In this document: positions 48,902 to 52,955 of the stretch, piece after piece
Position numbering within the stretch: position 1 is the first letter of the stretch
Layout: every line of letters starts with the position of its first letter
Assembly: GCA_965227295.1 (NCBI GenBank)
Contig: OZ245742.1
Location: forward strand, 928,001 to 992,000
DNA: 64,000 nt
Source of the DNA: Leptonemataceae bacterium
Lineage (GTDB): Bacteria; Spirochaetota; Leptospiria; Leptospirales; Leptonemataceae
Direction: 5' to 3'
Translations under genes and position numbers: made by a program
The notes under the pieces: generated by a model
What the model was told of the DNA's origin: nothing
The model's input: the letters and a program-made list of their open reading frames with translations, nothing else
Database searches by the model: none

Positions 48902-50860
48902 TCAAATCAACTCGGGATCGCTGACGACTTCCACCATGGACGGCCCGTTGTACGCGAGCGCCTTTTGAATGGCGTCGTCCAGTTGCGCTGCGTCGGTGAC
49001 ACGAATCCCCAGGCCGCCGCAGTTTTCGGCGTACTGTGCGAAGTTCGGGTTGTGCAGATCAATCTGCCAGGGATCGAAGTGACCGGCGAGTTGCTCTTTG
49101 CGAATCTTCGCAATCATGCTGTTGTTCAGCAAGATGTGCGTGATGTTCATGTTGTACTTGACCGCCGTCAGAAACTCGCCCATGTACTGACCGAAGCCGC
49201 CGTCGCCGGTCACCGCGATAATCGGACGTTTGCCGCCCTTCGGTCCGTTCTCGGCCGCCCAGGCACCCATGGCCGCCGGAAAACCGAAGCCGATGCTGCC
49301 CAGGTACCCGGACATCAGCACGGACTGTTCCGTGCACTCGAAGTACCGGCCGAACGAGTAGGTATTGTTGCCGACGTCCACGGCAATCACCGCGTTCTTC
49401 GGAATCGTACGATTCATGGCGGCGAAGATCGCCGAAGAACTGACGCCCTTGCCACGGTCTTCGCCCAGGCGTTTTTCTTTTTCCGCGCGCCAGATCCTCC
49501 AGCGCTCCGCGACTTCGTTCGTCTGATCCGTAAAGTTCGTTTTGCCGGTGAGTTCGTCCGTAAGCACATCCAGCGTTACGCCGATCTCGCCCCACATGGG
49601 CACGCTCACCGGATGCACCTTGCCGAGCATCATCGCGTCGAAGTCCACCTGGATGATCGGCTTTTTCTTTTCGATGCCGGTGTGATTCGAAAACGAAGCA
49701 CCGAGCACGATCAAACAATCCGACTCGTTCATGAACCAGGATGCGATGGGCGTGCCGCTGCGCCCGAGCACGCCGCAGCCCAGGGGATGTTGATCGCTGA
49801 TGATGCCCTTGCCCTTGAACGTGGTGAGCACAGGAATCTTGAACTTCTCCGCGAACTCGCGCAGCCGGTCACGATGAAAGCGTGCGCCGTGACCCACGAT
49901 AATCACGGGTCGTTTCGATTTCGAAAGCAAATCCACGGCATCGACGACGGAACTCTGCGGCGGCGCAATCTCGCGTCCGGCAACGCGACCTTCCGGACCG
50001 GACGGTTCCGCGCCTTCCGGGGCGGGCAGCACCTGAACTTCGTCGGGAAAGATCAGCGTCGATACGTCGCGCTTGAGAATGGCATTCTTCAACGCCAGGT
50101 TCATAAGTTCCGCGTGTTTCGAGGATTGCAGCACGGTCTGTAACCATTCGGCGACTCCGTCGAACGCGGCCTTAAGATCCACTTCCTGGAACGCGCCGGG
50201 GCCGAGGACCTGCGTATCCACCTGACCGGTCATGGCAAGAATCGGTACGCGATCGACTTTCGCATCCCACAATCCCGTAAGCAAATTCGTGGCGCCCGGC
50301 CCGGCAATCGTAAGACACGCCGCCGGACGTCCCGTTAGCTTTGCGTAGCCCGACGCCGCGAATGCCCCCGCACCCTCGTGACGAATCGTAATGAACTTAA
50401 GCCGGCCCGCTTCTTCTTCGCGACGCAAAGCATCAGCAAGACCGAGACACGAGTGACCCACAAGACCGAAGCAGGTATCGACGCCCCAGTTCGTCATCGT
50501 CCGCGCCATAACGTCGGCCACCGTGGTTACGTGCGCCTGTTCCTCGGCCATGCCGACGTAGAAACCGTCGCTACGTTCTTCGACGGGATACGTTTCGATG
50601 CCGTCATCGTAACCGCCGGGCGGCTTGCCCGTCTGTGGGTCGAAGTCCCAGCCGTGCCAGGGACAACGCAACATGCCGTTCTCGATGGAGCCTTCGCCCA
50701 GCGGACCACCCTGGTGCGGACAGGCGTTGTCCAGGGCGCTGATCTTTCCGTTGCAATGCGTGACGCACACGGTCTTGTGTCCCGCCACGGCCGTCTTCAC
50801 GCGGCCGTCGGGAAGCTCGTCTTTACCGGTGAGGATTTTGTACCATTTTAGTTCTGACAT
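48902..50860 (-). CDS. Rieske [2Fe-2S]-fused ThDP-dependent enzyme (pyruvate oxidase/acetolactate synthase family)
   Basis: CPHQGGPLGEG...CPWHGWDF; RHEGAGAFAA, GPGATN, GDGG...NN ThDP motif. Confidence 0.92.
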   Translation of the reverse strand: MSELKWYKILTGKDELPDGRVKTAVAGHKTVCVTHCNGKISALDNACPHQGGPLGEGSIENGMLRCPWHGWDFDPQTGKPPGGYDDGIETYPVEERSDGFYVGMAEEQAHVTTVADVMARTMTNWGVDTCFGLVGHSCLGLADALRREEEAGRLKFITIRHEGAGAFAASGYAKLTGRPAACLTIAGPGATNLLTGLWDAKVDRVPILAMTGQVDTQVLGPGAFQEVDLKAAFDGVAEWLQTVLQSSKHAELMNLALKNAILKRDVSTLIFPDEVQVLPAPEGAEPSGPEGRVAGREIAPPQSSVVDAVDLLSKSKRPVIIVGHGARFHRDRLREFAEKFKIPVLTTFKGKGIISDQHPLGCGVLGRSGTPIASWFMNESDCLIVLGASFSNHTGIEKKKPIIQVDFDAMMLGKVHPVSVPMWGEIGVTLDVLTDELTGKTNFTDQTNEVAERWRIWRAEKEKRLGEDRGKGVSSSAIFAAMNRTIPKNAVIAVDVGNNTYSFGRYFECTEQSVLMSGYLGSIGFGFPAAMGAWAAENGPKGGKRPIIAVTGDGGFGQYMGEFLTAVKYNMNITHILLNNSMIAKIRKEQLAGHFDPWQIDLHNPNFAQYAENCGGLGIRVTDAAQLDDAIQKALAYNGPSMVEVVSDPELI

Positions 50861-50882: not shown

Positions 50883-51336
50883 TTTGCCACAGAGGCACAG
50901 AGGACACGGAGTTTTTTAGATTCTAAAGCGATGAACGCCGTCTTTTAAGAGTGTTGATTTGAAATTGATGATCAGTCCGATGTTATATCCGCCCATGCGC
51001 ATATAGCTCAGGATCTGCGCTTCGAATACTGGTTCCATGCGCTCAACGCTCTTCAGTTCCACAACAACGCGTCCTTCCACGAGAAGATCGAGTCGATACT
51101 CTCCAATTTCCCGGTTCTTGTAAAACACAGGCAGTCGTTTCTGTCGTTCATAGCCGATGCCCCGATCATCCAACTCGATCGCCATCGCTTCTTCATAGGC
51201 CGATTCCAACAACCCGGGCCCGATCGTCCGATGCACTTCAATGGCTGCGCCGATAATCCCGCCGGTTAACCCACTCTCTTCCACATTACCACCCCATCCA
51301 ACACAAACTCTGTGTCCTCTGTGCCTCCGTGGCAAA
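50883..51336. mobile_element. Inverted-repeat-bounded GxxExxY cassette
   Basis: 32-bp inverted repeats at 50883-50914 and 51305-51336 (30/32 match) enclose a single ORF. Confidence 0.65.
50916..51284 (-). CDS. GxxExxY protein (PD-(D/E)xK nuclease-like)
   Basis: GPGLLESAYEEAM; YRLDLLVEGRVVVELK; AQILSYM..G..INF; GTG start after a G-rich RBS. Confidence 0.93.
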   Translation of the reverse strand: MEESGLTGGIIGAAIEVHRTIGPGLLESAYEEAMAIELDDRGIGYERQKRLPVFYKNREIGEYRLDLLVEGRVVVELKSVERMEPVFEAQILSYMRMGGYNIGLIINFKSTLLKDGVHRFRI

Positions 51337-51341
51337 AGTTC

Positions 51342-52955
51342 CTAAAGCGCCGTCACCCCGGCATATTCGATTCCGGTAAGATAAGCCATATCACGATCCA
51401 GCGTAATCAAATCGTCTTTCGTGAATTTGTTCAGATGATCGTGGCCGCAGGCACGGGCCATGACCTGCATCAACTCTACCGTGGCCTCGAAAAAGGTTCT
51501 CAGACGCTCCGCGCTCTGATCGATGATCAGGCGTTTGCGTAACTCCTCTTTCTGCGTCGCGATGCCCACCGGGCAGTTGTTCGTGTGACACGCCCGCATG
51601 CCGAGGCAGCCGATGGCCTGGAGCGCGGCGTTGGAAACAGCGATACCGTCCGCGCCCAGGGCCAGGGCCTTGACGAAGTCCGCCGCGGTCCGCAACCCGC
51701 CGGTAATGATCAACGTCACGTCGCCGCGGCCGAGTTTATCTAAGTGCAACCGGGCGCGAGCTAAGGCGGGGATCGTCGGCACGCTGATGTTGTCTCGAAA
51801 AATGAGCGGCGCCGCACCGGTACCGCCGCCGCGCCCGTCCAGGATAATGTAGTCCGCTCCGGCCTGGAGCGCGAAGTCGATGGTGTCTTCGATGTGATTC
51901 GCCGAAATCTTAAAGCCGATGGGAATGCCCCCGGTATGCTCGCGAATTTCTTCGGCGCAGGCCGCGAAGGCCCCGGGGGAATCGAACTTCTCGAAGCGCG
52001 GCGGCGAGATGGCCGGTGTGCCGGGCTTCAGCTCCCGCACTTCCGCGATGCGGCCCTGGACCTTTTCTCCGGGCAGATGTCCGCCGGTGCCGGTCTTCGC
52101 CCCCTGGCCGGCCTTAAAGTGAAATGCCTGTACATTAGTAAGCTTCTCGATGCTGTAGCCGAACTGCGCCGAGGCCAGTTCGTAAAAGTAGCGCGAGTTG
52201 TTCTCGCGTTCTTCCGGCAGCATCCCGCCTTCGCCCGAACAAATGCCCGTGCCGGCCAGCTCCGCACCTTTCGCGAGGGCGATCTTCGCTTCTTCGGAAA
52301 GCGCGCCGAAGCTCATGTCGGAGACGAACAGGGGTATGGAGAGTTGCAGCGGTCTTTTCGCCCCGGGGCCGATCGTAATTTCCGTACCAACCTGCGCATC
52401 GTCAAAGAGCGGGAGACGATGTAACTGCGCCGTTTGAATCTGGATGTCCTCCCACCTCGGAAGATCCAGACGACTTACACCCATGGCGGAAACCGGGCCG
52501 TGGTGGCCGGTCTTCTGCAGGCCGTGCTTTGCGAGATGTTGAATGTCGTTGTTGTTGTACTCGTCCGGCCCGCCGTGCACATCGGCATACTGACCGAGGT
52601 ATTCCTCGCGATTGTAGGGCTGCGGGTTGTCCCGCTCCCATTCCGCGATTTCGTCCTCGTCGACCAGGACTTCGTCGGCTTCGATCCAGGCCGAAAACAT
52701 CCGGAGACGTTCTTCGTTTTTGTACGCGCTGATGCCGCTTTTGTACTGGTAATCCCAACTGTGCAGACCACAAATGAGATTGTCCCCGTCGATGAAACCG
52801 TCCGCCAGCATGGCGCCCCGATGCAGACAGCGACCGTAGAGCACGGAAACCGCAGCATCGTACTTAATCACAACTAAATCAACATTAGCCACGAGCGCCG
52901 CCGTGGGCTGCAACGTTTCCAGCTCCGAGAATTTTGCTATGGCAGTCTTTCTCAT
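51342..52955 (-). CDS. Rieske-fused FMN-binding glutamate-synthase-like protein (no glutamine amidotransferase domain)
   Basis: RCLHRG...ICGLH Rieske; SDMSFGALS, SGEGG, GQGAKTGTGGHLP, DGRGGGTGA, CLGMRACHTNNCPVG. Confidence 0.92.
   Translation of the reverse strand: MRKTAIAKFSELETLQPTAALVANVDLVVIKYDAAVSVLYGRCLHRGAMLADGFIDGDNLICGLHSWDYQYKSGISAYKNEERLRMFSAWIEADEVLVDEDEIAEWERDNPQPYNREEYLGQYADVHGGPDEYNNNDIQHLAKHGLQKTGHHGPVSAMGVSRLDLPRWEDIQIQTAQLHRLPLFDDAQVGTEITIGPGAKRPLQLSIPLFVSDMSFGALSEEAKIALAKGAELAGTGICSGEGGMLPEERENNSRYFYELASAQFGYSIEKLTNVQAFHFKAGQGAKTGTGGHLPGEKVQGRIAEVRELKPGTPAISPPRFEKFDSPGAFAACAEEIREHTGGIPIGFKISANHIEDTIDFALQAGADYIILDGRGGGTGAAPLIFRDNISVPTIPALARARLHLDKLGRGDVTLIITGGLRTAADFVKALALGADGIAVSNAALQAIGCLGMRACHTNNCPVGIATQKEELRKRLIIDQSAERLRTFFEATVELMQVMARACGHDHLNKFTKDDLITLDRDMAYLTGIEYAGVTAL

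Follow-up and report, generated by a model that had tools for sequence, protein, structure and literature searches.

A GxxExxY nuclease gene between heptamer-built inverted repeats in a spirochaete operon, and its relation to gene-less hairpin elements and intervening sequences

Why should a small gene for a predicted nuclease, tightly enclosed by two inverted repeats, lie between two genes of an operon? The locus belongs to the window, by which we mean the whole analysed stretch of 64,000 nucleotides from a Leptonemataceae bacterium (Spirochaetota; contig OZ245742.1, positions 928,001 to 992,000). A preliminary description of its letters saw in this unit a distinct class of tiny mobile or homing element or, alternatively, an mRNA intervening sequence whose repeats form a helix. 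Three questions arise, namely whether the unit is an insertion, whether its repeats occur elsewhere, and whether repeats and nuclease belong together.

The cassette, its gene and its site

The features concerned are listed below in window coordinates, in the order of operon transcription.

51342..52955, minus strand: upstream host gene (context only), Rieske plus glutamate-synthase-type FMN domain (PF01645, 3.1e-91; PF00355)
50883-51336, 454 bp: whole cassette (arm, ORF, arm) between the two operon genes
51305..51336, minus strand: 5' arm in the sense of the operon transcript, inverted repeat of 32 nt, member of genome family A (see below)
51285..51304, minus strand: 20-nt spacer with Shine-Dalgarno-like GGGGTGG ahead of the GTG start, as read from the sequence
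50916..51284, minus strand: GxxExxY / PDDEXK_3 nuclease gene, 122 aa from GTG, stop codon TAA at 50916-50918
50883..50914, minus strand: 3' arm, which pairs with the 5' arm and closes the folded transcript
48902..50860, minus strand: downstream host gene (context only), Rieske plus thiamine-diphosphate enzyme, pyruvate-oxidase-like (PF02776, PF00205, PF02775, PF00355)

An inverted-repeat search agrees with the arms as first described: they match at 30 of 32 positions (94% complementarity over 32 nt), with 390 nt separating them. Both indeed contain three CAC(A/G)GAG heptamers, spaced 8 and 9 nt. The 5' arm starts with TTTGCC, continues with CACGGAG, CACAGAG and CACAGAG, separated by G and by GA, and ends with TTT; the reverse complement formed by the 3' arm in the transcript consists of CTCCGTG, CTCTGTG and CTCTGTG, separated by TC and by C and followed by GCAAA. 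When the predicted cassette transcript is folded, the 32-nt arm stem closes the fold.

The close fit noted earlier is likewise correct. A single nucleotide separates the stop codon TAA from the left arm, 20 nt separate the likely GTG start from the right arm, and the latter ends 5 nt past the stop of the upstream gene. The ribosome-binding site of the downstream gene is spared, as 22 nt including GAAGGAA are left ahead of its ATG. The open frame as such extends over 50916-51335 (minus strand) if counted from a TTG located within the arm; the GTG at 51284-51282 is the more likely start. The ORF had been described as AT-richer than its neighbours, and its G+C content is 50.4% against 59.6% and 59.8%, with GC3 of 0.57 against 0.73 and 0.74.

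The two-unit heptamer pattern is found at two places in the 64-kb window, which are the two arms, whereas 0.00 are expected from 100 shuffles. That an inverted repeat surrounds an ordinary small gene by chance or through an assembly artefact is practically negligible as an explanation, given this expectation, the intact presence of the stretch in contigs of two public runs and the recurrence of the architecture at 63 of 79 loci in other genomes. Three public runs were examined for contigs at the cassette, and one of them yielded nothing. None of the contigs has an empty site; they comprise source-like contigs and, at the arms, pieces of other family-A copies.

Empty sites were sought in 40 relatives, for which the last 199 residues of the upstream gene product served as query. 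Orthologues of this gene are present in five of them. The Rieske-TPP gene directly follows in three (G001, G002 and G008), and the other two have a different downstream gene. Intergenic gaps measure 108, 79 and 82 nt, respectively, versus 486 nt in the present genome (G000), and both arm and ORF are absent from the orthologous gaps of the three genomes. All three relatives with the same gene pair thus have the operon without the cassette, which provides the empty site that an insertion predicts. G001 and G002 belong to the genus of G000, and relative to these same-genus genomes the 454-bp unit is an insertion. Each of the two has a single GxxExxY gene, located elsewhere and accompanied by decayed or different arms.

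At one such locus (L021, G001:C2), two direct copies of an arm composed of CACGGAT units lie downstream of the GxxExxY gene and a piece of the complementary arm lies upstream, an arrangement that is the reverse of the usual order. As to the host operon, both of its genes encode large enzymes with a Rieske [2Fe-2S] domain fused to the N-terminus; this unusual pairing is conserved in at least four genomes.

Inside the cassette, no sigma-70-like site was detected upstream of the ORF. The sole site of this kind in the region (window 50920-50948, minus strand, TTAAAA-17-TAGAAT) falls at the very end of the GxxExxY ORF, within its last codons, and is directed towards the downstream host gene, and one site is no more than shuffles contain.

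The ORF product matches the GxxExxY profile TIGR04256 (1.5e-41, 141.4 bits, cut-off 35) and PF13366 (PDDEXK_3; 1.3e-40, 138.8 bits, cut-off 22). The latter is the sole Pfam match of the ORF, in agreement with the earlier statement that it contains no HUH motif. Residues G18, E21, Y24, D60, E70 and K72 are invariant in 19 sequences, and the AF2 model (pLDDT 96.6) displays an alpha-beta core with PD-(D/E)xK-type fold. Judged by these residues and by the confident predicted model, the enzyme is intact. The nearest solved folds are all weak matches (lambda exonuclease, Cas4, RecB-type domains and Hjc resolvase; best E-value 3e-3): Foldseek returned no match at E <= 0.001, and no sequence relative of the protein was found among solved structures. 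Neither were relatives found in viral contigs or matches in PHROGs, and PADLOC reported nothing beyond a faint Cas4 match for the second GxxExxY copy of the genome.

Some long public forms of the protein appear as one-off "fusions" to CN hydrolase, aldehyde dehydrogenase, NUDIX, B12-binding and other unrelated housekeeping enzymes. These are probably gene calls reading through an arm. One-off fusions of this sort would be expected of cassettes placed tightly and co-directionally at gene ends.

Two arm families in one genome

The genome is a single contig of 5.94 Mb with exactly two GxxExxY genes, the products of which share 47% identity. The second gene is located as follows.

C1:1864534-1864881: second GxxExxY gene, between two co-directional genes, with an inverted repeat of 33 nt (29/33)

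The second copy is thus also flanked by an inverted repeat, a possibility that the preliminary description had proposed to check. Its arm sequence, ACTCCGAGGACCGAGG.., is unlike that of the cassette arms in the window. Two families of arms can be distinguished. Family A is built of CACRGAG units and comprises 40-44 arms, the count varying with the regular expression used; family B (CCGAGG units) comprises 255. Each GxxExxY gene is enclosed by another family, the window copy by A and the second copy by B. Solo and gene-less copies of the arms, which had been suggested as something to search for, exist genome-wide in both families. A minor arm variant (ACCACCGAGG...) is without a gene of its own.

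Arms frequently form close pairs with spacers of up to 250 nt, 74 in total (11 of family A and 63 of family B). In every one of them a purine-rich GAG-arm precedes a pyrimidine-rich CTC-arm, and the reverse order was found in none. All 74 gene-less pairs are intergenic and occupy all intergenic contexts, including those between divergent genes; rough gene calls placed two pairs "inside genes", and the ORFs there proved spurious. These gene-less elements are about 130-140 nt long and fold to long hairpins. Genes are found inside elements only in the two GxxExxY-bearing copies. A scan free of any motif yielded 127 inverted repeats of at least 22 nt in this genome; 70 of these have spacers of 30-250 nt, and 54 of the 70 belong to family A or B. 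The arms of the window cassette are therefore members of a genome-wide family of gene-less hairpin elements.

Likeness between short and full elements ends 30-40 nt from each end; in family B, a subterminal GGGGAAGATGG stretch also belongs to the shared terminal part. Among the 71 gene-less elements long enough to be compared, interiors are mostly unrelated, with 16 weak pairs and 50% G+C. No direct repeat of 2-9 nt was detected at ten boundary offsets in the 63 + 11 elements, so that the earlier remark on missing target-site duplication at the cassette extends to 74 family members. The only signal at element boundaries is a palindromic GC that is part of the arm. Two candidate explanations of the short elements were discarded. 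Their origin as deletion derivatives of the full cassette has no support beyond the arms, and a role as terminators was rejected as the T-run before the stem and the A-run after it merely lengthen the stem.

Several additional arrangements were observed. Several solo family-A arms (G000:C1:1975566-1975720, 3648761-3648920, 5361000-5361164, 5855360-5855528 and 1559400-1559568) directly adjoin, on the inner side, another repeat, which is GC-rich and about 150 nt long (..GCGCAGCGCGGAGGACCGCAGCGAAGC.., with GGGAACGCCCAAAAAAA at its end). Pieces of this repeat also form long inverted repeats, for example at 3764058-3765330 and 3908530-3908718, and it looks like a third family that combines with arms. 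At G000:C1:2557164-2557360, a family-A element contains a nested inverted repeat of CGCGGAG type (CACCGCGGAGGCGCGAAGGACGCGGAGAG ...), that is, an element within an element. Finally, four perfect CACAGAGG units at G000:C1:1341838-1341868 form a solo array that has no partner arm in its vicinity.

Gene-less elements with terminal inverted repeats are familiar from other bacteria. Correia or nemis elements of Neisseria and other MITEs are intergenic, 100-200 bp long, bounded by terminal inverted repeats and devoid of genes; transcripts of Correia and nemis elements form long hairpins and are reported substrates of RNase III. MITE copies share their whole length, usually together with a target-site duplication. 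The elements described here resemble them in being gene-less, intergenic and terminated by inverted repeats. They differ from MITEs in that arms alone are shared, no duplication is present and a protein-coding full-length partner exists.

A closer parallel in genomic behaviour is provided by REP elements and RAYTs. A RAYT is encoded by a single-copy HUH/Y1 transposase gene flanked by inverted REP repeats, each a short GC-rich palindrome. As in REP/REPIN-RAYT systems, a repeat scattered over the intergenic regions of the genome also flanks, in inverted orientation, a gene present in single copy; each repeat family has one such gene, and its members pair into hairpins. The differences concern the enzyme, which is a PD-(D/E)xK nuclease and not an HUH/Y1 transposase, and the repeats, which are tandem heptamer arms of 30-45 nt and not one short GC-rich palindrome. 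Moreover, interiors of pairs are unrelated here, and the GxxExxY gene does not occupy a conserved locus within the genus.

This parallel raises the question of whether the hairpins have been domesticated, that is, whether they serve the host as mRNA stabilisers, attenuators or nucleoid sites, as has been proposed for REPs, with GxxExxY as a vertically kept maintenance enzyme. The occurrence of one gene per arm family, the distance between the two proteins of this genome (47% identity) and the far better conservation of arms than of interiors would all suit such a role, and these three traits resemble those reported for single-copy RAYTs in a published study (PMC5581495). Vertical maintenance agrees poorly, on the other hand, with the missing window copy at the orthologous site of two same-genus genomes, the location of their own copies at other loci with decayed or different arms, the foreign composition of the ORFs and the distribution of family B. 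The pattern of the latter has 340 matches in G000 and at most 13 in each of 40 other genomes, so the family is essentially confined to this genome. We regard domestication as improbable.

Gene-arm pairing in other genomes and its relation to intervening sequences

To what extent gene and arm occur together was determined at the loci of the 80 best relatives of the window protein, in contigs from one genome per species. This sample, biased toward relatives of that protein, includes Verrucomicrobiota, Acidobacteriota, Chloroflexota, Planctomycetota, Chlamydiota, Bacteroidota, Proteobacteria, Methanothrix and others. Flanks sufficient for the arm test were available at 79 of the 80 loci, and arms were accepted when the inverted repeat across the gene scored more than 2 points higher than any of 30 shuffles. 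By this criterion, arms flank 63 of 79 GxxExxY loci as compared with 5 of 133 control windows displaced by 800 nt; the 63 loci represent 58 distinct arm pairs with kin among them, and are hence dependent. The arms have a median length of 33 nt and lie at median distances of 28 and 22 nt from the profile match. At least two CRCNRAG units (CACAGAG, CGCAGAG, CGCAAAG, CGCCAAG and similar) are present in 59 of the 63 arm pairs, and in 54 of these 59 they are located upstream in the sense of the gene. GxxExxY genes and arms made of CRCNRAG units thus pair across many phyla. In the more diverse GxxExxY loci of the relatives of G000, arms were found at 10 of 19, with more varied units. That other GxxExxY genes would carry such repeats, a point on which the preliminary description had made its proposal depend, is thereby borne out in both samples; the rule is strong for the subfamily of the window protein and weaker further out.

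The association is also apparent at the level of whole genomes. Among 41 genomes, comprising G000 and its relatives, at least 10 matches of the two-unit CRCRGAG pattern occur in 10 of the 16 with a GxxExxY gene versus 1 of the 25 without, a comparison between dependent kin in which the threshold of 10 was set after the numbers had been seen. The same pattern read backwards gives at most 8 matches in these genomes.

Two unusual cases deserve mention. A relative without a GxxExxY gene has strand-biased CGCAGAG clusters (G007:C5:116743-117230 and C10:143889-144295) that resemble tandem arrays and not inverted pairs. In a Waddliaceae genome, six contigs (L058, L060, L061, L063, L069 and L072) contain the same GxxExxY cassette. 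Beyond the arms, the flanks of these six are identical wherever they were compared (over about 120 nt on the upstream and 95 nt on the downstream side), which indicates copies of a larger multi-copy repeat, and recent spread of the cassette was rejected as their explanation. One of the six contigs (L058) was scanned against Rfam and gave no match.

Flanking genes vary; they differ between the two copies in G000 and among the 80 loci. Among 70 wide-range loci with both neighbours assigned, the GxxExxY gene is co-directional with both in 34 and opposed to both in 10. Rfam has no match at any of the 40 GxxExxY loci tested out of these 80, and none of them is in an rRNA gene. With insertion sites so numerous and unrelated, the designation as a homing element in the usual sense has to be abandoned. 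Homing endonuclease genes of introns and inteins are comparable insofar as a small nuclease ORF resides in an element harmless to expression of the host gene. There is, however, no self-splicing host element here and no single conserved target site, and insertions are situated between genes and not within them.

The alternative likeness proposed at the outset, to ORF-bearing intervening sequences (IVS) of 23S rRNA, holds at the level of architecture. A study on Coxiella (PMC4990558) describes a selfish 23S IVS of 428-444 nt, the terminal inverted repeats of which form a closing stem of 28 bp. In its 5' region, AGAAGA and three tandem heptamers (GACAGAT) precede the S23p ORF, and RNase III cuts inside the stem; the same study calls the origin and mobility of this IVS unclear (PMC4990558). 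The window cassette and 23S IVS (Coxiella, Leptospira; TIGR02436) accordingly have in common a unit of about 430-450 nt, a terminal stem of about 28-32 bp, a small ORF in the loop and a 5' arm of tandem heptamers after a purine-rich AGAAGA-like stretch. The differences are that an IVS lies in an rRNA helix and the cassette in an intergenic gap of a protein-coding operon, that the IVS encodes a four-helix bundle and the cassette a PD-(D/E)xK nuclease, and that the cassette has heptamers of the CRCNRAG class along with dozens of gene-less copies. The 23S gene of G000 itself is uninterrupted (end-to-end model match, 2915 nt), and TIGR02436 has no match in this genome.

Arms of tandem units are not peculiar to Coxiella. 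They were found at 15 of 26 TIGR02436 (S23p, four-helix-bundle) loci, namely at 4 of 9 in relatives and at 11 of 17 in a phylum sample. Their units are 6-9 nt long (AGTTACA, AAAGTCG, TAGTTCA), and one locus has the GACAGAT unit known from Coxiella. Units of the CRCNRAG class occur in 0 of 13 four-helix-bundle arms versus 59 of 63 GxxExxY arm pairs. Four-helix arms, too, are multi-copy in their own genomes: those of G072 have 52 matches there versus 0-11 in four other genomes, those of G101 23 versus 0-1 in other genomes, and those of G087 126 versus 2-8. The GxxExxY genes of G072 and G087 have arms of GCCACAGAG type and not the heptamers of the four-helix cassettes in the same genomes; arms of this type persist even in genomes that are AT-rich and employ other heptamers in their four-helix cassettes. 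Arm sequence thus tracks the ORF family, and this speaks for either specific recognition or strict co-inheritance. A profile search detected no GxxExxY gene in G101 (98% complete), G003 and G023, all of which have cassettes encoding four-helix bundles, proteins that are not enzymes, so a cis-encoded nuclease is not required by this design.

These observations bear on an explanation confined to RNA, according to which the arms form a helix for RNase III or another double-strand-specific RNA nuclease, GxxExxY is selfish cargo with an unrelated job, and a host or unlinked factor spreads the arms. The common design with the RNase III-cut IVS of Coxiella speaks in its favour, as do the unrelated four-helix-bundle ORFs in equivalent cassettes (15 of 26 loci), their multi-copy arms, once in a genome without any detected GxxExxY gene, and the orientation biased to the host operon. 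A helix alone would not fix primary sequence, yet 59 of 63 arm pairs share CRCNRAG units across phyla and G+C contents. Further, mismatches between arms show no excess of changes compatible with G-U pairing on the sense strand (59 versus 71), and selection on a sense RNA helix is hence not visible. Nor would this explanation lead one to expect gene-less elements in every intergenic context, including between divergent genes, or arm-type repeats that go with the presence of a GxxExxY gene. We consider an RNA-only function rather unlikely.

In terms of classification, the element combines the design of an IVS with genomic behaviour similar to that of REP/RAYT, with a different enzyme and different repeats. 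The features that define membership in the known groups are absent from it, that is, location in rRNA, an S23p ORF, an HUH transposase, target duplication and a shared interior. The description as a distinct class is less apt than that as a branch of the IVS-type cassette design.

A nuclease superfamily survey lists the function of PF13366 as unknown, and one published passage that mentions GxxExxY names it only as a neighbouring domain. Our search found no paper on the GxxExxY / PF13366 family; four arm strings are in no paper found, and a search around RAYTs and REPINs returned REP work only. Within these searches, from which subscription journals and supplements are excepted, the association of GxxExxY with arms and the gene-less families are not in print.

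A possible mode of action and propagation

The explanation that we consider probable, if far from certain, is a selfish palindromic cassette of IVS type that rides on operon transcription and the predicted nuclease of which acts on its own arm family as a RAYT does on REPs. Lacking a promoter of its own, the cassette would be transcribed together with the host operon. Such dependence on host transcription is indicated by the lack of a promoter-like site before the ORF, by the co-directional bias (34 versus 10) and by the read-through "fusions". The arm helix of about 32 bp in the operon transcript could then serve, by analogy with Coxiella, as substrate of the RNase III of the cell, and cleavage would release a hairpin-ended nuclease mRNA uncoupled from the operon. 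The terminal stem of the folded transcript, the presence of an RNase III gene in G000 and the same arm design in the IVS of Coxiella cut by this enzyme are consistent with this RNA step.

At the DNA level, the nuclease would recognise and cut its own arm family in trans, and the arms would thereby spread or become homogenised. Such spreading would resemble the action of RAYT on REP/REPIN, albeit with a different enzyme fold. Action of the nuclease on its own arms in DNA is the weakest step of the proposal. Conserved arms together with unrelated interiors and missing duplications do not fit cut-or-copy transposition of whole units and are unlike MITEs or REPINs derived from a master copy. Repeated cutting inside arms followed by repair from other copies would, as a conjecture, fit both the conserved arms and the unrelated interiors.

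A wider generalisation is possible, and we put it forward tentatively, as being less probable than not. GxxExxY proteins might be the missing enzymes of a pan-bacterial, and also archaeal, class of heptamer-armed palindromic elements that includes the ORF-bearing 23S IVS; each would cut its own CRCNRAG arms, repair would spread the arms, and RNase III would excise the element from RNA. A bolder version, in which the nuclease itself would cut the RNA helix by analogy with the distantly related tRNA-splicing endonucleases, appears very improbable.

The family PF13366/TIGR04256 is large, prokaryote-wide and of function listed as unknown, and our results provide it with a concrete partner, a DNA or RNA sequence beside most copies in the sample. 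Three puzzles become linked in this way: the role of the GxxExxY nuclease, the source of abundant intergenic hairpin repeats and the nature of ORF-bearing rRNA IVS. If the enzyme is specific for the tandem heptamer array, it would represent a sequence-directed nuclease that is compact, at about 120 aa, and for which natural variants of specificity exist. With regard to its possible oligomeric state, many of the public GxxExxY proteins (P0001-P0050, P0053-P0103) are 265-300 aa long and resemble tandem doubles of the domain, as if a dimer were the working unit.
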